From Nitrospinaceae bacterium (GTDB lineage: Bacteria > Nitrospinota > Nitrospinia > Nitrospinales > Nitrospinaceae): DNA of 64,000 nt. This document shows positions 21,111 through 30,880 of this stretch, one piece after another (within the stretch, counting starts at the first letter, position 1; the number at the start of each line of letters is the position of its first letter). Position numbers and translations under genes: made by a program. The notes beneath the pieces are model-generated. The model worked only from the letters and a program-made list of their open reading frames with translations, had not been told where the DNA came from and made no database searches. The DNA lies in NCBI GenBank assembly GCA_965223665.1, contig OZ245011.1, positions 896,001 through 960,000 of the forward strand, in the 5' to 3' direction.

Positions 21111-21559
21111 CCAGAAAAAAATAATTTTGTAATTAAATAAATTATCTTTCTTAAAAATTTTTACTACATAATTCTGTATCGCAAAGAGAATTGCAATAAA
21201 TATTTCTTATGATCTAGCTCAAGTGACCGAGGAACATATCGAAAGAAGGATAATAAAATAATTTTTTATAAATGGTTTTATAAACACAGCGGACCAGAGC
21301 AAATGTTTACTAGTTTTTTACAAGCATGGTTAAAGAGAACTTCCAAAATACCCCAATTAGGCGTTGGAAAATTTTTCACCTTTGCCGAAAAAAATATGCT
21401 ATTGTTGGCAAAGATTTTCCAGTGGAAGCAAAATATGCGCCGCAAGAATGTTTTGCTCCAAAGTTTAATTGTTTTACCAGGAAACTACTATGCAGTAAAA
21501 AAACTCGAGGCGTTTGCTCACTGATTTTGCAAAAACCGCCTTATCTGGGAGGGTGGGTG

Positions 21560-24500
21560 ATGAGAAACTACAGCGGACACCTAATTCATTTTCAAATATT
21601 CTTATACCTGACAATCTTTGGATTTTATCCTCATGTTTCATTTGCTGCGAAATGCGAAAAGCCTATTGCCAAAATTGTATCGGCACAAGGAAGCGTAGAG
21701 GTACAACACGTTGGAAATGCAGATTGGAAACCAGTTGTATTAAATGAAACTTTTTGCCCGGGAGATAAGCTTCGTACAGATCCAAAAAGTCGTGCTGAAA
21801 TTGCGCTGGATAAATCTATTCTTCGCCTGAACGCCAATACCCTCCTTACCCTTAAAAATGTAAAGGAAAATAATACTGCCCTGATCGATTTACTTAAAGG
21901 AATCGCTTATTTTTTCAGTCTTGCCCCCAAAAGCCTCGAAGTCACAACTCCCTTTGCCATAGCTGCAGTCCGAGGCACAGAATTTCTGATAACTGTTACC
22001 CTCCAAAAAACTTTAATCACGATTTATGCCGGTAAAGTGTTTGCTTCCAATTCTAATGGATCCCTCATTTTGAAAAATGGGCAATCTGCTATCGCTGAAA
22101 GTGGTCAAGCTCCTGTTTTGCAGGTAAGACTGCGTCCACAAGACGCCGTTGCCTGGACTTTGTATTATCCACCAGTTATTAATATTCAAACTGAAGGTTA
22201 TCCGGAAGCAATCCGGCAATCGATTCAATATTATCAAAAGGGAAATATTAAAGGAGCATTTGACAGTATTGAAAACGCACCTGAGTTTCAGGATCCCAAG
22301 CTTTTAAACTATTTGGCGTCTCTAGAACTATCTGTCGGCCAGGTAGAAGCCGCCAACAAATACATTCAGAAAACCTTAAGCATTGACCCTAAAAATAGCG
22401 AAGGGTTGGCACTGCAATCAATCATTGCTTTGACTCAAAATAATAAAGAAGAAGCTTTAAGCAAAGCCAAACAGGCTGTTCAAGCCAACTCCCAATCTGC
22501 AACGGCGCAGATCGCTTTATCATATGCCCATCAGGCCAGGTTTGATATGAATAGCGCTCTGGCCAGTGGTCTAAAAGCCGTTGAACTGGAACCGCAAAAT
22601 GCACTGGCCTGGGCACGCCTTGCAGAACTCTGGTCGGCCAAGGGCTATCAAAAGAAAGCTCTGGAAGCAGCCCAAAAAGCGGTTTCGCTAAACCCAAACC
22701 TGGCAAGAACGCAAACGGTTCTTGGATTTGCTCATCTTACAAATGAAGATACCTCCAGTGCTCGCACCGCTTTCCAAAAAGCCATCGAACTGGATCAGGC
22801 AGACCCTCTTCCCAAATTGGGTCAAGGCATGGCTAAAATTCGAGACGGTGAACTGGAGGAAGGACGAAAAAATATTGAAGAAGCGGTCAACCTGGATCCA
22901 AACAATTCCCTGATGCGCAGCTATCTGGGAAAAGCATACTACGATGAAAAACGCAGTGTCAAAGCATTAGAGCAGTTCAGTATTGCTAAAAAGCAGGATC
23001 CCAAAGACCCAACTCCCCTTTTCTACAGCGCTATTGAAAAGCAAACCACCAACCGACCGGTGGAAGCATTGCACGATTTGCAAAAAGCAATCGATTTGAA
23101 CAATAATCGAGCACCGTTCCGGTCCCAGTTGTTAATGGACAAGGATCTCGCTTCTCGTAGTTCTGCCGTAGGGCGCATTTATACCGATCTAAATTTCCAG
23201 AATCGGGCCTTATTAGAGGGTTGGTTATCACTCGCTACAGACCCTACTAATTTTTCTGCCCATCGTCTTTTAGCAGACTCATACTCTATTTTACCGCGAC
23301 ATGAAATTGCCCGAGTCAGCGAACTGCTTCAGTCACAACTTTTGCAACTTGTTAACATGACCCCCATACAACCGCGCCTGGGGGAAAGTAATTTATTACT
23401 CATCAGTTCTGGTGGTCCGGGGGCCTTGTCCTTTAACGAGCTCAATCCCCTGTTCCAAAGCAATGGTATCACTTTCCAGGGAAATGGGATTGCCGGGGAA
23501 AACGATACCTACTCTGGCGAAGGCATCATTTCGGGAATTTTTGGAAAAGCTTCCTTCAGTGTAGGATACAGCAAATTTGATACCAACGGTTGGCGCCCAA
23601 ATGCAGACCAGGAAGATGACATTGTCAACGTTTTTACACAATTTCAGATTTCTCACCTTACAAGCGTACAATTTGAATACAGGTTCCGCGAGACTGTACA
23701 AGGAGATATTGTACAAAGGTTTTTTTCCTCAGACTTTCAGGCAACCTTAAGGAATAAAGATACAACAAATACAGCTCGCTTGGGTTTTCATCATGTATTC
23801 ATGCCTGGATTGGATGTTATTGGTAATTTTTCTTATCAAAATATGGATCGAGAATTGAAAGATCCATTTTTTTCAGTTGAACTCATGGGCAAAGATAAAT
23901 CTCTCGGTGGTGAGCTCCAAATGCTATTCAGGTCGAAATATATTAATATGGTGACCGGTGGAGGGTTCTTCTACATAAATATCAAAGAAACTTTTACCTT
24001 TACCCCCTTTCCACCCGAAATTTCGGATTTTACTCAGAAACATTCCAATTTTTATTTATATTCCTATATTAAAATATTAAAGAATTTAACCCTCACTATT
24101 GGAGGTAGCGGTGATTTCTTTAACACGGACAATCCCATGGCAAAGGATAAAAACCAATTTAATCCTAAGATTGGGGTCGTTTGGGAACCGCTCAAAGGAA
24201 CTACTATTCGTGGCGCCTGGTTTAGAGTCCTAAAGAGAACTTTGGTAGCTCAACAAACCATTGAACCGACTCAGATCGCCGGATTCAACCAGTTTTTTGA
24301 TGAACTTAATGGAACTGACTATTGGGTACGCGGAGTTGGTATTGATCAAAAATTCACTAAAAGTTTTTACGGTGGAATACAATTCACTGAGAAAGATTTG
24401 GATGTTCCTATTCTGTTTAGTTTCCCTCCAGCCCTGCCACAGCTAAATATTTTCTCCTGGGAAGAAAAACAAGCTCGCGCTTATTTATTTTGGACGCCGC

Positions 24501-24904
24501 ATCAATGGGTATCTCTATCTGCAGAATGGATTTGGGAACGCCTGGACAGGGAATCACTACTCAATTTAAATGTCCGAGCTTTAGAAACCCATTATTTTCC
24601 AATGAAGGTTAATTTTTTCCACCCTTGCGGGTTAAGCCTTTCCATCAAAGAAACCTATGTGAATCAAAAAGGCACTTTTAATCGATTGACTGCACTACCG
24701 GGAGTCCTTACCCCTGGAAAAGATAGTTTTTGGTTAACTGATATCGCCATCAAATATCGTTTTCCAAAGCGATATGGATTTCTGACCGCGGGGGCCACTA
24801 ATTTGTTTGACGAAAGCTTTCAGCACTTTGACCCGGATTTAAATAACACACGTATACAACCAGTCCGGGCTTTTTTTATTTCAGTGACACTAACAATTCC
24901 ATAA
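21560..24904 (+). CDS. Outer-membrane FecR-TPR-beta-barrel protein (NsrA-like architecture)
   Basis: ATG 21560 follows GGAGGG and begins a signal peptide (..HVSFA/AKC), so it is preferred over ATG 21326. FecR-like domain (SAQGSVEV..CPGDKLRT..VTTPFAIAAVRGTEF), many TPRs, and a C-terminal amphipathic beta-strand region with a TonB-receptor-like end (GATNLFD...RAFFISVTLTIP). Confidence 0.85.
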   Translation: MRNYSGHLIHFQIFLYLTIFGFYPHVSFAAKCEKPIAKIVSAQGSVEVQHVGNADWKPVVLNETFCPGDKLRTDPKSRAEIALDKSILRLNANTLLTLKNVKENNTALIDLLKGIAYFFSLAPKSLEVTTPFAIAAVRGTEFLITVTLQKTLITIYAGKVFASNSNGSLILKNGQSAIAESGQAPVLQVRLRPQDAVAWTLYYPPVINIQTEGYPEAIRQSIQYYQKGNIKGAFDSIENAPEFQDPKLLNYLASLELSVGQVEAANKYIQKTLSIDPKNSEGLALQSIIALTQNNKEEALSKAKQAVQANSQSATAQIALSYAHQARFDMNSALASGLKAVELEPQNALAWARLAELWSAKGYQKKALEAAQKAVSLNPNLARTQTVLGFAHLTNEDTSSARTAFQKAIELDQADPLPKLGQGMAKIRDGELEEGRKNIEEAVNLDPNNSLMRSYLGKAYYDEKRSVKALEQFSIAKKQDPKDPTPLFYSAIEKQTTNRPVEALHDLQKAIDLNNNRAPFRSQLLMDKDLASRSSAVGRIYTDLNFQNRALLEGWLSLATDPTNFSAHRLLADSYSILPRHEIARVSELLQSQLLQLVNMTPIQPRLGESNLLLISSGGPGALSFNELNPLFQSNGITFQGNGIAGENDTYSGEGIISGIFGKASFSVGYSKFDTNGWRPNADQEDDIVNVFTQFQISHLTSVQFEYRFRETVQGDIVQRFFSSDFQATLRNKDTTNTARLGFHHVFMPGLDVIGNFSYQNMDRELKDPFFSVELMGKDKSLGGELQMLFRSKYINMVTGGGFFYINIKETFTFTPFPPEISDFTQKHSNFYLYSYIKILKNLTLTIGGSGDFFNTDNPMAKDKNQFNPKIGVVWEPLKGTTIRGAWFRVLKRTLVAQQTIEPTQIAGFNQFFDELNGTDYWVRGVGIDQKFTKSFYGGIQFTEKDLDVPILFSFPPALPQLNIFSWEEKQARAYLFWTPHQWVSLSAEWIWERLDRESLLNLNVRALETHYFPMKVNFFHPCGLSLSIKETYVNQKGTFNRLTALPGVLTPGKDSFWLTDIAIKYRFPKRYGFLTAGATNLFDESFQHFDPDLNNTRIQPVRAFFISVTLTIP

Positions 24905-24965
24905 AAACTTGAATTGTTAGAATCTGGAAAGATTATAATCGAAACCATTCTGAGGAGGGCTAAAT

Positions 24966-25601
24966 ATGCTTAACAAATCAAAGGAAAAAGTACCTAAGTT
25001 AATAATTAAGTTAATTTTAATGATTTATTTTACCATTTCATTTTCCGCTTGCACAAAGACAATACCAAACTATGAGCATCCTATTCCTGATACCACTCGA
25101 ATACCCACTCGAATAAATAAAACTATTGAATTCAAAGGAAAAGGAGAAAAAGAAAGTAAAGTAATATGCACCCAAGTAGATCCAAAAACTCAATGTGAGA
25201 TACAAGTCCCCTGCCAAACAGGAGAAAAAGTAGAAACGAAAACTCTCGCAGAAGTTTTAGGCGTGGACAAAGCAATAGTTGATATTGAAAATCATGCTTG
25301 TGCAACATTTAGCCTGGATCTAGGTCACCAAAAAAATCCTTATTATTGTTCCGGAGGTTTTTGTAGGTGGTCACCATCTGACAGAAGATTAAAGAACAAT
25401 ATCCATAAAATTGGGCAATTGAAAAATGGTCTCAATATCTATAAATTTAAATATATTTGGGATGATGCCTGGAGGGTGGGAGTAATGGCAGATGAGGTAC
25501 GTAAAGTTTTACCCGAAGCCGTGATTACCATCAATGGATACGATCTCGTGGATTATTCAAAAATCAAAATTGACTATTCTGCAATTACAGATGATCAATA
25601 A
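24966..25601 (+). CDS. Cys-rich putative lipoprotein (cassette A) fused to a C-terminal peptidase S74-type intramolecular chaperone domain
   Basis: GAGGAGG RBS, hydrophobic signal with lipobox FSAC, six-Cys domain paralogous to 25957..26451. From 25377 it reads SDRRLKNNIHKIG...IYKFKY...GVMADEV...PEAV...GYDLVDYSKI. Confidence 0.8.
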   Translation: MLNKSKEKVPKLIIKLILMIYFTISFSACTKTIPNYEHPIPDTTRIPTRINKTIEFKGKGEKESKVICTQVDPKTQCEIQVPCQTGEKVETKTLAEVLGVDKAIVDIENHACATFSLDLGHQKNPYYCSGGFCRWSPSDRRLKNNIHKIGQLKNGLNIYKFKYIWDDAWRVGVMADEVRKVLPEAVITINGYDLVDYSKIKIDYSAITDDQ

Positions 25602-25626
25602 AATGCAAATTTCATAATTCTGTATT

Positions 25627-25654
25627 AAGGCAGGGTCTTTTTGGACCCTGCCTT
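25627..25654 (+). terminator. Rho-independent terminator after cassette A
   Basis: AAGGCAGGGTC-TTTTTG-GACCCTGCCTT, a perfect 11-bp stem. Confidence 0.8.
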
Positions 25655-25956
25655 CTTCATTTATGAACATTTGGATAAATAATTTACCTGTATTTTTTTT
25701 AGAATATGGAATGAACCTTCATCATCAACTTCCTAGAAATATTTACCAATCCATTTGCCTCTTTTAATAATTTTCTTAAATTTTTTTCTGCATTTAAATC
25801 AGCAATGATGTTTTAATAACTTGTCTCCTTGTTCAGGATCTAGGAAAAAGTGAATTTAGCAAATCAGGATTAAAATAGTGTAACTATTGATAATGTATTG
25901 AGATGTTTTTGAACAAGAAATTTTTATCGAATCAAACCAAATGAGGAGGGATAAAT

Positions 25957-26451
25957 ATGCTTTACAAATCTAGAGCACCCATCACCATCATAATGATTAA
26001 AACTTTTGCACTTGTTTATTTTATTATTTACTTTTCTGGAATTGCAAATTCCAATGAGATTCAGCAGGGTCTGGACACCACCCGAATACCTACCAAAATT
26101 AAAAAAACAATAAAATTTTTTGATAACAAAGAAAAAGCAAGAACAATGGAAAGTTTTGGAAATGAAAGAATAGCTAGCACATCAGAAAATTCTGACGCCA
26201 CCCCGGATACCAGCAAAACAGTGTGCACGGAAGTGGATCCAAAGACTCAATGTGAAATTGCAATACCTTGTGGATCGGAAGAAGAATTAGAAAAATTTTC
26301 GCTGGCGGAAATCTTGGGAATGGGAAAGGCTAATATCATCATTCCTGGTCAAACTTGTGCAACCTTTATTCTTGATATTGATCACCCCAAAACTCCCTGG
26401 TATTGTTCAGGAGGAATTTGCACTTTGTATGGTTCAGGCAATTCTGGATGA
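25957..26451 (+). CDS. Secreted six-Cys protein (cassette B), paralog of cassette A without the S74 domain
   Basis: GAGGAGG RBS, signal peptide, DTTRIPT motif and the same C-x8-C-x5-C-x28-C-x15-C-x4-C spacing as cassette A. Confidence 0.8.
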   Translation: MLYKSRAPITIIMIKTFALVYFIIYFSGIANSNEIQQGLDTTRIPTKIKKTIKFFDNKEKARTMESFGNERIASTSENSDATPDTSKTVCTEVDPKTQCEIAIPCGSEEELEKFSLAEILGMGKANIIIPGQTCATFILDIDHPKTPWYCSGGICTLYGSGNSG

Positions 26452-26503
26452 AGAACTTGATATCTCTAAAATTGGAAAGTATTAAGATTTTGAATAAAAT
26501 ATA

Positions 26504-26536
26504 AAGAAGGCCGGGTAATTTTTTCTCGGCCGTCTT
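26504..26536 (+). terminator. Imperfect hairpin after cassette B, related to the cassette A and D terminators
   Basis: AAGAAGGCCGGG...CTCGGCCGTCTT around a T-rich loop. Confidence 0.5.
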
Positions 26537-27143
26537 GGCTTTGAGAAATATATTAGAGGATTATACCGTTTTTCATGCCTCTTTAATTCTTACCAAATGT
26601 GACATTCCAATTTTTCCTAAGGAAAAAAAATTCTCTACATTCTCATTTTCAGAGTTTCTTGCCAAAGATTTTCTTGTCCCAAATTTTATTCTCCCTTCTA
26701 AACTCCACCCTTCCCCAAAATTCATTCTTTATTTTCTGACCAAAGGACAACTGACAATTGCTTACCTTTGTCGTAGAACCCCTAAAACACAAAAAACTAC
26801 ATTTTTTGGTTGTATTTTACCAGGTTTATAGTATATTCCGTTTAACTAAATTTTTGGTTTATTAAACTTCTAACCTTTGGTGTTTTATACATGAAAACTA
26901 ATTAAAGCCTTAAGTTTAACCAAAACGAGAAGAGCCCGCCAGAATCAATTGGCTCCTTATTATTACTAAACCAAATAATTTTGGATTATAAAAATTTTGT
27001 CTTCAACGATTTTACCCGTTTTCTTGAAAAACCTCCAAGGGCAAAACCATACGCTCTTAACCAACTAAATCTATTTTTTTATAGGCCTAGTTGAATATAT
27101 ATAAAAAAGCGTTTTATTCAAAACCATTATAGGAGGGCTTAAT

Positions 27144-27638
27144 ATGCTTATCAGGCAAAAAACATATTTCTTAATTGGCTTATGGTTTTTGATGTTGTTT
27201 GTACTTTACGCTACACCCCAAATAGTATTAGCAAAAGAAAAAGGTCAAAAGGAAGAATCTACAAAAAATTTAACTGGCCCATCAGCCAACCGTACTTGCT
27301 TAAACTTGGGAAGAGCCTCTATTTTGGTTTCATTTACAGATGGTTGTCCGAGAGATCCCAAAAAAGTTAAATTTTTCACAGAAACCCAATGCCAAGGAAA
27401 AAGAAAAAATCCGGATATTTTATCAAAGGCTGTGACCGTGTACAGCTCAGGAATCGACACAGGAGGGGTTCTCGAATGTAGGTGGAATGCAAAAGTTTGG
27501 AAAGTCAATCCATACTGGTATGTCTATTCTGCGGGAGGTAATGTAGCTTGCACCTGTTACGATTTCACCAATCCGCTTCCATATACATGCGACCCGGAGG
27601 ATTTAAATAATCCTCCTGCTAATTGTTCAGGAAATTAA
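27144..27638 (+). CDS. Secreted eight-Cys protein (cassette C)
   Basis: AGGAGG RBS, signal peptide (..QIVLA/KE), and a C-terminal 41-aa block homologous to cassette D. Confidence 0.8.
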   Translation: MLIRQKTYFLIGLWFLMLFVLYATPQIVLAKEKGQKEESTKNLTGPSANRTCLNLGRASILVSFTDGCPRDPKKVKFFTETQCQGKRKNPDILSKAVTVYSSGIDTGGVLECRWNAKVWKVNPYWYVYSAGGNVACTCYDFTNPLPYTCDPEDLNNPPANCSGN

Positions 27639-27797
27639 TTAAGTCATGTTTAATTAACATTTAAATATGCAATAGTGATCGAGCCAACAGGTTAGACACA
27701 GTTGCTTCTGGTTCTTCCAGAGTAAAAAGATAATTAATAAACAAGATCTCTTTAAATCTTGCTTGAACAAATTTCCAATGAAGAAAAGGAACGTAAA

Positions 27798-28286
27798 ATG
27801 AATAACAAATATATAAAACCAGCTAAACCATTATTTGTCCAATTAGGCATTATAATCCTCTCAGCCTTGGTATTCCTTGGATCTGATAATGGATCTAATT
27901 TGATTGTTTCCAATACCTGCATTAATTTGGATAGCAATGCATCTGTTTGTATTACTAGAAACGATGATGGAACCCCATCAACTGTAGACTGGTTTCCAAG
28001 AACGGGATGCCCACGTTCACTGGCATGTCCTTCTCTTGATTCTTCTACTGAAAAGAGCAATCTTGCCTTGGGAGATTCCTCGGATATTTTTACTTCCAAA
28101 GAGGAGGGCGAAATTTGCACCGATGGGCACTCTAATGAGTGTCTTGATAAAGAGATATTTAACCCCACCTGGTATCAATATACTGCTGGGGGTAATGCAT
28201 ATTGCAAATGTTATGACTTTACTGCTGCTCCTCCCTATACATGCACACCGGAGCAATTAGCAAATCCTCCCTCTTGGTGTTCATAA
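27798..28286 (+). CDS. Secreted ten-Cys protein (cassette D), paralog of cassette C
   Basis: ATG 27798 follows AAGGA and is preferred over TTG 27759. Hydrophobic N-terminus, and the block NPxWYxYxAGGNxxCxCYDFT...PYTCxPExLxNPPxxCS shared with cassette C. Confidence 0.78.
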   Translation: MNNKYIKPAKPLFVQLGIIILSALVFLGSDNGSNLIVSNTCINLDSNASVCITRNDDGTPSTVDWFPRTGCPRSLACPSLDSSTEKSNLALGDSSDIFTSKEEGEICTDGHSNECLDKEIFNPTWYQYTAGGNAYCKCYDFTAAPPYTCTPEQLANPPSWCS

Positions 28287-28291
28287 TAATT

Positions 28292-28393
28292 ATAGGGGTT
28301 ATGGCAGATGAGGTTAAGAAAGTTAAACCGGAAGCCGTAATTACCATCAATGGATATGATCTCGTGGATTATTCGAAAATCCCATTGAACTAA
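28292..28393 (+). pseudogene. Orphan C-terminal half of a peptidase S74 domain
   Basis: Translates as IGVMADEVKKVKPEAVITINGYDLVDYSKIPLN*. 28301-28381 matches 25485-25565 at 71 of 81 nt by manual alignment. Confidence 0.85.
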
Positions 28394-28438
28394 TCTACTG
28401 GTAAAAATAATCCATTGTTTTTTACTTTTTCTAGTTAT

Positions 28439-28470
28439 AAAGGCAGGGTCTTTTTCGGCCCTGCCTTTTT
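28439..28470. terminator. Terminator (possibly bidirectional), near-copy of the 25627 hairpin
   Basis: AAAGGCAGGGTC-TTTTTC-GGCCCTGCCTTTTT, between convergent genes. Confidence 0.8.
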
Positions 28471-28489
28471 CAAAATTTTTTTGATGAAA

Positions 28490-30880
28490 TTAATTACTTC
28501 GTGGAATGGTAAAGAAAAAGGTGCTCCCCTTCCCTATTTCTGACTTGAACCCGATTTTCCCTTTGTGTCCTTCCTCAATAATTTCCTTGCAGGACATCAG
28601 GCCAAATCCATCACCGTCAGGTTGAGAGGTAAAGTTTTCATTAAACAAAAGTCTTTTGATTTCTTCCGGAATTCCCGTTCCTTTATCCTCAATACGGACC
28701 TCAATAAATTCCTCTAAACCTTCAACAGAAACACAAATTTCAGAATTCTTTTGGGAGGCATAACCTGCGTTGAGTATCATGTTCTGTAGAACTCTTTTAA
28801 TGTCCAATGTGTTTACCGGTCCAATAGAATTAGAATCATTTTCAAGAAGTGTTACTTTTTTATTTTTAATGTCATCATGAAAGCCAATTTCTTCTTTTAC
28901 TTCCTTAACTAAATCAAAAATATCTATTTCTTTTTTTGGATATTCTCGAGTTCCCTTTTGGACACAAGCCAGGCTTTGGTCAATCATTGAAACCATGTTA
29001 TTTTTTACGGAAATCATAACCTCAAGACCTTTTTTGAGTTTATCAAGGCCCTTACGCATATTATGCTGCTCATTGGAACCGGTTAGTTTTTCCAGAGTAT
29101 TTTGAAAATGCATCTTGGAAAACTCCAGAGGCACTAAACAGTTTTTCATGTCGTGAGTAAAGTGACTCAGTTGTTGAACATCATTGGACATTGTATCCAG
29201 GTCATTTCTTAAACGGCGTGAACATACTTTCATCATTTCCAGCAGGGCTTTGGAATTGGACACAATGTATTTGGCAAATAAATCTTTATCGATTTCAATT
29301 ATTAGACCATCGGTTAATGCCACTGCAGAAGCTGACCGAGGCAAATTGTCAATCAAGGAAATTTCTCCAAAATATTCTCCCGGGTTTAGATCCGTAATAA
29401 CTTTTTGGTAGTTTGGCCCCTTACTAATTCTGACTTTTCCACGAAGAAGAATATGAAGATATTGTTCATCCCTGGCCCCTTCCTTTATCAAAACATCCCG
29501 CGCCTTAAGAACCACATCCCTGCTTTCTTTTGCAAGATTTACTTTTGCCTCCAGTGGGAGACAGTCAAAAAGATCAATCTGCTTTAAAAGTTCTAACTTC
29601 CTCGTTATAGCATTATCGTCTGTAATATTGGTTTGTGATAATTGACCGGACTCTTTTTTAGGTTCGGTTCTTATAGATTTGGGCAGGGTGAAACAAAACT
29701 TTGTACCCTTCCCCCAATGAGATTCAAATCCAATTTTTCCATTATGGTATTTTTCAATAATCTCCTTACAGGATATTAAACCTATTCCGTTTCCATCCGG
29801 CTTAGAGGAAAAACTTTCCTTTAAAATAAAGGGTTTAATATCATCCGGAATACCAGAGCCGTTGTCCTCAATACTGATTTCAATTGCATGGTTCATATTT
29901 TTTACAATACAGACTATTTGATCTTTTTTCTGGGTTGCATAACCTGCATTGATGATCAGGTTTTGCAAAACTCTTTTAATATCCAAATAGTTGATTTTCC
30001 CAATGACTTTGGATTCCGGAGATTCCACCCTGAGTGTTTTGTGTTCAAGTTGCTTATGACAGGAAATTTCTTTTACCGTTTCTTTGGCTAAGGCCAATAT
30101 GTCAAAACTATCTTTGACGTATTCTCCCTGCTGTTTTTTAACGCAGGCCAGACTCTGATCGATTAATGTGGTCACATAATCCCGAACTTCTATAATTGTA
30201 TCCACTCCCATTTTCAACTTTTTAAAACCATCCCGCCTTATATGACCTTCTTCAGTCCCATTCATTATTTGCAAAACTTTTTGAAGATAGCTTTCTGAGT
30301 TTTTTAAGGGTAAAAGAACGTTGCGCATGTCATGTGTAAAACAACTCATTTTACGCATGTCTGATTCCATACGGGCTAAGTCATTTCGAATTCTTTGAGC
30401 AAAAACTTTCATCATCGCCACCAAGGCCTTTGAGTTGGAGGCAATATACTTTTGAAAAATTGTCTCATTGATTTCCAGCAATAAGGTATTTTTCATAGAC
30501 TTTACTGAAGCCGAACGGGAATTCGAATCTACTAAAGGCAATTCGCCTACATAATCGCCAGTACTTAAATAGGAAATAATTTTTTTTGATTTAAAAACCA
30601 CCACACGGCCAGTGAGGATAATATACATGGATTTCTGCTGCTCACCTTCCCATTCGAAGAGGATTTCCTCCTCACCCAGGCGCCAAAGGGGACTTTCCTC
30701 TATAATCCTCAGCAAGGTCTCTTTGTTAAAACAATTGAAAAGCTCAATTTTCATCAATTCTTCCAATTCCATTTCTTGAAGTTTCTTTTGCAGTCCCATT
30801 TGTCCAGGATTTGGCGAAACTTTTTTATAAGAATGGATATCAGATACCTGAGTCTTTTTTTCTGGAGAAAAGTTTTTCAT
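28490..30880 (-). CDS. Cytoplasmic tandem [cyclic-nucleotide-binding domain + histidine kinase] x2 protein
   Basis: cNMP cassettes GDYVGELPLVDSNSRSAS and GEYFGEISLIDNLPRSAS, H-boxes FTHDMRN and FTHDMKN, two HATPase domains (NLIINA/DNGSGI/GIGL/GKGT and NMILNA/DKGTGI/GFGL/GKGS). No TM segment seen. Confidence 0.88.
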   Translation of the reverse strand: MKNFSPEKKTQVSDIHSYKKVSPNPGQMGLQKKLQEMELEELMKIELFNCFNKETLLRIIEESPLWRLGEEEILFEWEGEQQKSMYIILTGRVVVFKSKKIISYLSTGDYVGELPLVDSNSRSASVKSMKNTLLLEINETIFQKYIASNSKALVAMMKVFAQRIRNDLARMESDMRKMSCFTHDMRNVLLPLKNSESYLQKVLQIMNGTEEGHIRRDGFKKLKMGVDTIIEVRDYVTTLIDQSLACVKKQQGEYVKDSFDILALAKETVKEISCHKQLEHKTLRVESPESKVIGKINYLDIKRVLQNLIINAGYATQKKDQIVCIVKNMNHAIEISIEDNGSGIPDDIKPFILKESFSSKPDGNGIGLISCKEIIEKYHNGKIGFESHWGKGTKFCFTLPKSIRTEPKKESGQLSQTNITDDNAITRKLELLKQIDLFDCLPLEAKVNLAKESRDVVLKARDVLIKEGARDEQYLHILLRGKVRISKGPNYQKVITDLNPGEYFGEISLIDNLPRSASAVALTDGLIIEIDKDLFAKYIVSNSKALLEMMKVCSRRLRNDLDTMSNDVQQLSHFTHDMKNCLVPLEFSKMHFQNTLEKLTGSNEQHNMRKGLDKLKKGLEVMISVKNNMVSMIDQSLACVQKGTREYPKKEIDIFDLVKEVKEEIGFHDDIKNKKVTLLENDSNSIGPVNTLDIKRVLQNMILNAGYASQKNSEICVSVEGLEEFIEVRIEDKGTGIPEEIKRLLFNENFTSQPDGDGFGLMSCKEIIEEGHKGKIGFKSEIGKGSTFFFTIPRSN

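Follow-up and report, generated by a model that had tools for sequence, protein, structure and literature searches.

A minimal Peptidase_S74 domain at the end of a small cysteine-rich exported protein of a Nitrospinaceae bacterium: a candidate self-removing C-terminal pro-domain

Introduction

Peptidase_S74 domains are the folding and trimerization devices of long phage fibers and spikes, and were later borrowed by the eukaryotic protein MYRF and by the fibers of Bdellovibrio. The present work concerns a member of this family in another setting, the end of a small cysteine-rich bacterial gene product that we call open reading frame (ORF) A. It is encoded within a window of 64,000 nucleotides (the whole stretch of DNA that was analyzed) from a Nitrospinaceae bacterium (assembly GCA_965223665.1, contig OZ245011.1, positions 896,001 to 960,000 of the forward strand). 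As argued below, this domain is probably a captured pro-domain that would remove itself from the protein to which it is attached.

The characterized intramolecular chaperone domains of this family are those of the phage K1F endosialidase, the T5 L-shaped tail fiber, the GA-1 neck appendage and the eukaryotic MYRF. MyRF is cut between P586 and S587, and both S587A and K592A abolish the cutting; these two residues are equivalent to S911 and K916 of the endosialidase endoNF (PMC8326128). A further study of MYRF follows the same Ser-Lys dyad logic (PMC3742443). In Bdellovibrio, Bd3182 self-cleaves at S782 and the mutation S782A blocks the reaction (Caulton et al. 2024, PMC10769870). The same source counts S74 domains in 13 of 21 Bdellovibrio MAT fibers, and describes the MAT proteins as trimeric beta-helical fibers of ~1000 residues, with a conserved domain of ~130 residues after the signal peptide. 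The titles and opening lines of the abstracts in the literature on Peptidase_S74, PF13884 and intramolecular chaperones offer no precedent for ORF A, with the supplementary tables of PMC10769870 being a place where similar cases might be found. By the same titles and openings, the Peptidase_S74/PF13884 papers all deal with phages, extracellular contractile injection systems (eCIS) or other viruses.

Results

ORF A (24966..25601, + strand, 211 amino acids, 25601 being the last base of the stop codon) is a protein of two unlike parts. In translation its cysteine-rich part ends NPYYCSGGFCRWSP, to be followed by SDRRLKNNIHKIG, later by GVMADEVRKVLPEAVITINGYDLVDYSKI, and so through to the terminus; the junction itself reads ...CSGGFCRWSP and then SDRRLKNNIHKIGQLKNGLNIYKFKYIWDDAWRVGVMADEVRKVLPEAVITINGYDLVDYSKIKIDYSAITDDQ. 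The second part, amino acids 138-211 (25377..25598, +), is a minimal Peptidase_S74 domain of 74 residues, recognized by Pfam, PHROG and PDB profile matches and by its ratio of nonsynonymous to synonymous differences (see below). It takes up the last 74 of the 211 residues, on the C-terminal side of the part that is presumably kept.

The original prediction for this window, made from the sequence with no database search, had proposed a self-cleaving S74 chaperone at precisely this place, and the profile search bears it out. The Pfam family PF13884 matches amino acids 138-186 with 41.3 bits (gathering score 22, E 1.9e-10) over profile positions 1-57 of 58, with Ser138 at position 1, and in a six-frame search of the 4.35 Mb genome the same domain was the sole match above the cut-off (44.1 bits). 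Even the proposed boundary is exact, base 25377 being the first of the Ser138 codon (25377-25379). The predicted dyad of Ser138 and Lys143 (codon 25392-25394) also stands: the two residues open and close the motif S138-D-R-R-L-K143, and none of the eight short S74 domains that we aligned, from phage, DUF3300-like and CSGG hosts, departs from the S, D and K of SDxxxK. A kinship with solved structures is found as well. A profile of these eight short domains, ORF A among them, reaches three S74 chains in the PDB, namely MyRF (7dc3, E 0.0027), the tip of a long tail fiber (6f45, E 0.03, with SDRRIK standing opposite SDRRLK) and, at a weak E of 1, the GA-1 neck appendage (3gud). Single-sequence phmmer searches of the PDB gave 0 matches for the whole ORF A protein and three chance-level matches, none of them related to S74, for amino acids 131-211. 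Judged on these matches, it is nearly certain that the C-terminus of ORF A is a true S74 domain with an intact Ser-Lys dyad.

One element of the prediction fared less well, its label of a domain of the tailspike type. The S74 stretch is matched by 19 PHROG families, the best of which, phrog_6121 ('virion structural protein'), scores 76 bits and the next 31. Likewise, a tblastn search against 50,697 phage records found 61 matching records, all at less than 60% identity, and the best of these (47-55%) are a podophage internal virion protein D, a putative ejection protein and a structural protein. The closest kinship is thus not with tailspikes but with the short S74 that ends virion and ejection proteins of podophages, and the minimal 74-residue domain of ORF A lacks the long C-terminal helical part that endoNF and MyRF have. 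When the S74 domains alone are aligned, that of ORF A is 50-68% identical to those of the phage proteins P0005-P0008. Another non-phage host of a short C-terminal S74 is a cellular protein of 664 residues encoded on a GC-rich contig (L011:3086-5080, and also L010), which has a long low-complexity middle part rich in Gly, Ala, Lys and Ser, and an N-terminal region that, from its motif, we take to be DUF3300-like.

The part of ORF A that precedes the S74 domain, its passenger, looks like a small exported protein. Direct reading of the DNA places a GGAGG ribosome-binding site (24954..24958, +) 7 nt before the ATG. The N-terminus consists of a basic MLNKSKEKVPK, a hydrophobic stretch and then ...ISFSA-C29, that is, a putative signal peptide of amino acids 1-28 with a lipobox-like FSAC whose cysteine is Cys29 (24966..25052, +); Cys29 presumably satisfies the PROSITE-type lipobox rule. 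Next come a linker, amino acids 30-58 (25053..25139, +), which is poorly conserved in alignments and of low predicted confidence, and the six-cysteine domain of amino acids 59-137 (25140..25376, +), the predicted mature protein, which is recognized by its conserved cysteine columns and an AlphaFold2 model and which we call the CSGGxC domain after its terminal motif. Of the S74-bearing members, ORF A alone carries a putative lipobox cysteine. The proteins P0002 and P0003 are without one, as is its S74-less paralogue, gene B, and the cysteine in the signal region of P0004 is preceded by Val, not by Ala, Gly or Ser. Other members of the CSGGxC family have [LF][VIT]SC at residue 23.

The cysteines of the passenger are C68, C77, C83, C112, C128 and C133, with a spacing that includes C-x8-C-x5-C; in alignments of 23 and of 44 sequences the first three are invariant and the other three nearly so. 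The family is small. When 1.84 billion proteins were searched with a profile made from the N-terminal regions of A and B, no more than 21 representatives came up at E <= 1e-3, and a profile built from 13 sequences found 27 proteins among 5.8 billion. In every one of these profile matches the CSGGxC domain forms the extreme C-terminus of the protein; in ORF A it becomes C-terminal only upon removal of the S74 domain. An AlphaFold2 model of amino acids 59-137, made with 44 sequences, has a predicted local distance difference test score (pLDDT) of 77.6. Against the PDB this model found no Foldseek match at E <= 0.001, and VIA-align in its wide mode gave no Z >= 2 among 48,161 chains; such an absence of fold matches is no proof that the modeled domain has a new fold. 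Searches with amino acids 30-137 in the ESM Atlas yielded no usable match, Pfam holds no family for the passenger, and NCBIfam has none for the products of genes A-D or for the small proteins at the corresponding loci of the related genomes G009 and G015. In 40 related genomes ORF A was not found, save for a weak match in G015, and a pattern scan of genome contigs with the family alignment gave 88 pattern matches and no relative of ORF A.

The predicted scissile bond, Pro137/Ser138 (25374..25379, +), at which the two parts of ORF A meet, is placed by Ser138 at Pfam position 1 and by the P586/S587 site of MyRF (PMC8326128). To compare this site with the ends of other family members, we searched the 44 family proteins with a CSGG regular expression, which matched 39, four with S74 and 35 without; the five that it missed (P0021, P0029, P0044, P0048 and P0049) are three short-tailed variants and two divergent ones. 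Among the 35 relatives that have no S74, 29 end exactly three residues past their last cysteine, typically as ...CSGGxC-Y-P-Y, and 25 end in Tyr. The remaining tails are of two residues (three proteins) and of four, five and nine residues (one protein each). The catalytic Ser comes fourth after the last cysteine in the S74-bearing proteins P0002, P0003 and P0004, and fifth in ORF A. The pair P0002 and P0010, which are 60% identical, gives the closest comparison: P0010 ends one residue past '...CYW', at the place where the last residue before the Ser of P0002 stands, and counted up to that Ser both have three-residue tails. Cleavage before Ser138 would, to go by these alignments, restore the native C-terminus of the CSGGxC family. 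The original prediction had likewise supposed that cutting would leave ORF A with a natural terminus, similar to those of the products of genes B, C and D. This agrees with the 29 of 35 relatives that end three residues past the last cysteine; the appeal to C and D does not hold, these belonging to a cysteine-rich family different from that of A and B. Because the junction coincides with the native C-terminus of the family, the module seems meant to leave, and we regard this as the strongest indirect argument for its removal.

The S74 domain is also the more constrained half of ORF A and is under strong purifying selection. In Nei-Gojobori comparisons on codon alignments of A with the metagenome genes at loci L007 and L008 (those for which DNA was available), the proportions of nonsynonymous and synonymous differences (pN and pS) in the S74 part are 0.13 and 0.87-0.92, the latter saturated, and those in the passenger 0.38-0.41 and 0.61-0.70. 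The two metagenome genes when compared with each other (L007:146-739 and L008:376-924) have a synonymous divergence (dS) of 0.10 in the S74 part and of 0.90 in the passengers, with downstream flanks that are nearly identical, a pattern that points to recombination or homogenization of the module beside fast-changing passengers. The two loci look as if a variable part had been swapped ahead of a constant module.

Despite this conservation, the distribution of the S74 domain within the CSGGxC family is patchy. We constructed a maximum-likelihood tree from the last 85 residues of 44 family proteins with the S74 domain cut off; it omits P0024, for which only N-terminal profile positions were matched, the G015 protein and the L007 variant. 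All four S74-bearing rows fall into one starred clade (95/98) of nine rows, and three of them are paired with a sister that has no S74: A with B (94/92), P0002 with P0010 (94/80) and P0003 with P0016 (98/83). P0004 is grouped with the S74-less P0017 and P0020 at weak support (90/0). The tree needs four changes of the S74 label, and its starred branches force at least two.

Two apparently decayed copies of the domain add to this picture. The gene for P0016, at locus L009, is followed by a decayed S74 in which a Trp codon at the junction has become a stop and the Ser codon is deleted; there are also a further stop, frameshifts and a 3' deletion of ~55 nt, after which comes the terminator hairpin of ORF A. 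The window itself holds a 3' remnant (28295..28393, +), identified by tblastn, DNA alignment and Pfam, that consists of the last 32 codons, GVMADEVKKVKPEAVITINGYDLVDYSKIPLN, and a stop. It is 80% identical in amino acids to residues 171-205 of A, contains neither the Ser nor the Lys, and scores 13.4 bits with the Pfam S74 profile (ORF frame 28241..28393), below the cut-off. It begins directly past the two stop codons that close gene D, lies in a different frame and before a kinase gene, and is followed by a copy of the ORF A terminator hairpin (28440..28467, +; seen in the sequence and the DNA alignment). This remnant may once have been the tail of D, or it may be what is left of a second CSGG-S74 gene. 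At L009, too, the decayed S74 is found at the kinase end of the locus, although there it stands directly after the sole CSGG gene. Taken together, the tree and these relics indicate that S74 has been lost repeatedly in the CSGGxC family; because of this repeated loss and the existence of S74-less sisters, the domain appears to be dispensable for the passenger and not an essential maturation switch.

Such a record is also what would be expected if the domain did nothing for its host. A phage S74 could have been fused to the passenger by illegitimate recombination and kept as a near-neutral element only by virtue of its clean self-removal, rather like an intein, with selection maintaining the cut because the uncut protein would be defective. 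This possibility differs from the reading that we prefer only in the purpose of the module. It is suggested by the repeated clean loss, which has left each S74 gene with an S74-less sister, by the stop exactly at the junction in the decayed L009 copy and the truncated remnant at 28295-28393, and by the rarity of the S74-bearing forms (about five, namely A, the L007 variant and P0002-P0004, compared with 40 proteins of the family that have no S74). The near-identical S74 and flank of L007 and L008 beside diverged passengers suggest that recombination moves the module, and purifying selection on S74 would be expected in this case too. However, the fusion is old enough for synonymous sites to be saturated between A and L007/L008, and it persists across at least four divergent passengers. 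We find a useless module conceivable, though rather unlikely.

A further point against an idle module comes from quite different proteins. A search with amino acids 132-211 of ORF A found proteins of 129-143 residues (P0060-P0065) with a three-part build: an invariant Y-x-x-P-x-L-x3-G-x-V-x3-T stretch, a short variable segment and a short S74. From 115 stretches confirmed in a scan of genome contigs, 79 loci were retained (L018-L096). An ORF with the S74 motif is present in 68 of these 79 loci, and in 59 the leader motif is there as well (64 ORFs). In all but one of the 64 ORFs the predicted core, which is 14-30 residues long, has an Asp or Glu somewhere in positions 7-9 (at position 8 in 51), in 40 the core begins with Gly, and 52 of the 59 loci have an Asn-synthase-like gene within 1.5 kb. 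At L080 (5958-10349) and L039 (5730-11696) the adjoining gene combines GATase and Asn_synthase domains; the best NCBIfam match of the cyclase-like gene of L080 is the lasso cyclase model, at 285.6 bits and below its cut-off of 525, and genes for an HprK-related kinase and a methyltransferase then follow. One S74-tailed precursor passes the lasso leader model NF033521 (20.9 bits, cut-off 19). ORF A has no such Y-x-x-P-x-L-x3-G-x5-T leader, nor is there an Asn_synthase among those of its neighbors that were scanned. Literature searches that paired lasso peptides with S74, tail fibers or endosialidase turned up no account of S74-tailed lasso precursors. The predicted architectures show a short S74 in repeated use on small non-fibrous products; that a similar fusion recurs independently on lasso-type precursors of many species hints at a positive use.

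The chromosomal surroundings of ORF A have little to do with phages. Upstream lies a gene for a FecR, TPR and outer-membrane beta-barrel protein (21326..24904, +; a 1192-residue ORF), identified by Pfam (FecR 47 bits, TPR families, TonB_dep_Rec_b-barrel 36 bits) and by orthologues in G015 and G009 that are 64-69% identical. The ORF as listed begins ~78 codons before the start of these orthologues (21326-21560; MMKD...CEKPIA...), and the true start is probably an internal Met in the MRNYSG.../NYSGHLIHFQ region. This gene ends 61 bp upstream of ORF A, and a terminator scan found no terminator-like site on the + strand between 24904 and 24966; after ORF A the same scan placed an intrinsic terminator hairpin with a 12-bp stem (25627..25654, +). 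There follow genes B, C and D and then a convergent histidine kinase gene with two cNMP-binding and two HATPase modules. Gene B (25957..26451, +; 164 residues), which ends CSGGICTLYGSGNSG, is the paralogue and sister of A (42% identity by tblastn), with neither an S74 nor a lipobox cysteine. Genes C and D (27144-27638 and 27759-28286) are paralogues of each other at 30% identity and form a second cysteine-rich family, both carrying the motif ...AGGN..C.CYDF....PYTC.PE.L.NPP..CS...; they have no BLAST similarity to A or B and no match in Pfam, NCBIfam or PHROG.

This arrangement is part of a conserved locus (21326-30880 of the window; L016 of G015, L017 of G009, L008 and L009) in which the barrel gene is followed by one to four small cysteine-rich proteins. 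These small proteins have signal peptides, change fast and differ between species, between flanks that are 64-69% identical. A CSGG gene likewise comes after the barrel gene at L008, at L009, where the kinase again closes the locus, and in G015; at L007 the upstream DNA is too short for synteny to be judged. The CSGG gene of G015 encodes a divergent lipobox-bearing member of 143 residues with no S74. Behind the barrel gene of G009 come two other cysteine-rich secreted proteins, one with the same N-terminal domain as the long CSGG members (E 3e-14, P0012). The barrel gene was found in two of the 40 related genomes and not in G001, which belongs to the same genus; no S74 was found in G001, G009 or G015.

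That ORF A might be no more than a degenerate prophage tail-fiber fragment, or a mis-called ORF with no function, is an idea to which we give almost no credence. It is true that the S74 relatives in phage records, outside the CSGG family, are all virion proteins. But ORF A is intact, with its own ribosome-binding site, signal peptide and terminator; the two-part architecture and its junction are repeated in four further sequences (P0002-P0004 and L007); pN/pS is low; and the gene is syntenic with orthologous chromosomal loci. The remark in the original prediction that the window holds no phage genes is upheld for the 36 ORFs between 1.8 and 50 kb of the window that were scanned with Pfam: 34 of them match no phage family, the exceptions being the S74 of ORF A and the sub-threshold remnant frame. 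The flanking ORFs are largely of the housekeeping kind and encode ABC transporters, LptF/G, CTP synthase, a KdsB-like protein, and signaling and polysaccharide functions.

Discussion

The explanation that we favor, with a probability of roughly 0.6, is that the S74 of ORF A is a captured, self-removing pro-domain. ORF A would be a Sec-exported precursor composed of a signal peptide with a probable lipobox, a linker, a 79-residue six-cysteine domain and a 74-residue minimal S74. The S74 module would have been captured in this lineage from the short class found in podophage virion and ejection proteins, and joined to the passenger exactly where the latter natively ends. Once exported, the S74 parts would assemble into a trimer, as S74 domains do, and Ser138, activated by Lys143, would cut the Pro137-Ser138 bond. 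This would free a 74-residue fragment and leave a mature protein ending ...CSGGFCRWSP, essentially the end that the S74-less relatives have by birth. Since the sister genes do without S74, the module would not be needed for passenger function as such; it would be a scarless self-removing C-terminal pro-domain, providing at most a transient trimerization or folding check. Export, assembly, cutting and a native-type end, taken jointly, make a chain of events that the gene's predicted features render reasonably probable.

Several points weigh against this explanation. No member of the short S74 class is known to cleave itself. The predicted tail of A, RWSP (four residues), and that of B (nine) deviate from the YPY consensus. 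In the AlphaFold2 model of the full-length ORF A monomer, made with five sequences, pLDDT is 45.6 and amino acids 138-211 score below 50. Only 25 residues follow the Pfam core in the S74 of ORF A, a stretch in which this low-confidence model predicts no helix as long as four residues; nor is there, upstream of the domain, any triple beta-helix or fiber, the usual substrate of such chaperones. The triple-helical coiled coil is described as the main driving force of MyRF trimerization (PMC8326128). The C-terminal helical part is likewise missing in P0005-P0008 and in the phrog_6121-type proteins, and Pfam does not demand it. With regard to the history of loss, the L009 contig also breaks the frame of the neighboring kinase gene, and part of the apparent decay could be poor sequence. 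Real decay, as opposed to sequencing error alone, is suggested by substitutions that create stops, by a Ser codon lost in frame and by the 3' deletion of ~55 nt. Finally, the remnant at 28295..28393 may derive from a second CSGG-S74 gene, in which case it would be no evidence about gene D.

Some of these same points would fit a permanent module, one that trimerizes the protein and cuts inefficiently or not at all, so that a trimeric lipoprotein keeps its S74 as an oligomerizing or anchoring base. No short-class member is known to have been assayed, and the strong conservation of the whole 65-residue core would also agree with a structural role, as would the absence of the C-terminal helical part of the characterized domains (PMC8326128). 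Yet S, D and K, the residues of cleavage in characterized S74 domains (PMC8326128, PMC10769870), are invariant in eight of eight sequences, the junction lies exactly at the native C-terminus, a precision that matters only if the module leaves, and there are sisters that have no S74 at all. We regard a permanent module as improbable.

A broader scheme is speculative and, taken as a whole, unlikely. Under it the mini-S74 of 65-75 residues would be a portable, scarless, self-excising C-terminal module, an analogue of the intein at the level of protein, repeatedly captured by cellular genomes from the virion proteins of podophages, and its passengers would be products whose free C-terminus matters, such as the cores of lasso peptides and other peptides that are made by the ribosome and modified after translation (RiPPs), DUF3300-like proteins and the six-cysteine domain described here. 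At the present locus the S74 might hold three passengers together and mask CSGGxC-xxx-COOH until folding in the periplasm is complete. Once freed, this end might be recognized by the TPR region of the barrel protein, whose gene would be co-transcribed, for surface export or for signaling to the neighboring cNMP-binding histidine kinase.

Whatever the fate of this scheme, one simple idea can now be put directly to the test, namely that short S74 domains serve generally as C-terminal tags which remove themselves and leave no trace. If true, it would account for the presence of the same module at the ends of lasso-type precursors in many bacteria, and it would provide a scarless cleavage tag of natural origin with no need for a protease to be added. 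Attention is also drawn to a conserved uncharacterized locus that comprises a FecR-TPR-barrel gene, fast-changing cysteine-rich secreted proteins and, facing them, a cNMP-binding histidine kinase.

Comparison with known systems

The closest class by S74 sequence is that of the phrog_6121-type podophage proteins, exemplified by the 'structural protein' of the Brucella phages Tb and Pr, the 'putative ejection protein' of Pseudoalteromonas phage H6/1 and the 'internal virion protein D' of an uncultured phage. Like ORF A, these virion and ejection proteins have a short terminal S74 (63-71 residues); unlike it, their passengers are 270-300 residues long, rich in Gln, Gly and Ala, and without signal peptides. 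The S74-tailed lasso-type precursors resemble ORF A in that a short S74 directly follows a small product and would define its C-terminus. They differ in being cytoplasmic leader-core peptides encoded beside an Asn-synthase-like cyclase, whereas ORF A has a Sec signal peptide and a folded six-cysteine domain.

With the characterized intramolecular chaperone domains ORF A shares the Pfam family, an SDxxxK motif with the Ser first, and a position C-terminal to the part that stays; the Pro-Ser junction and the Ser-x4-Lys spacing are those described for MyRF (PMC8326128). In contrast to the domains of endoNF and MyRF, the S74 of ORF A has only 74 residues, with no long helical coiled coil. Its passenger also sets it apart from these proteins, being a 79-residue domain of the disulfide type and not a triple beta-helix, a fiber or an enzyme, as do its signal peptide and its chromosomal signaling and outer-membrane locus.

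The MAT fibers of Bdellovibrio bacteriovorus, as presented in PMC10769870, are a parallel in a cellular setting: they are non-phage proteins with a signal peptide and a C-terminal S74, and in the MAT family, as in the CSGGxC family, members with and without S74 stand side by side. By the MAT descriptions of that source, ORF A differs in being a non-fibrous protein of only 211 residues that shares neither the beta-helical fiber nor the conserved domain behind the signal peptide. Cellular S74 domains are thus known already, from MYRF and the MAT fibers; what is new here is a small, compact, exported and non-fibrous passenger, its residue-exact grafting to the module, and the record of repeated loss.

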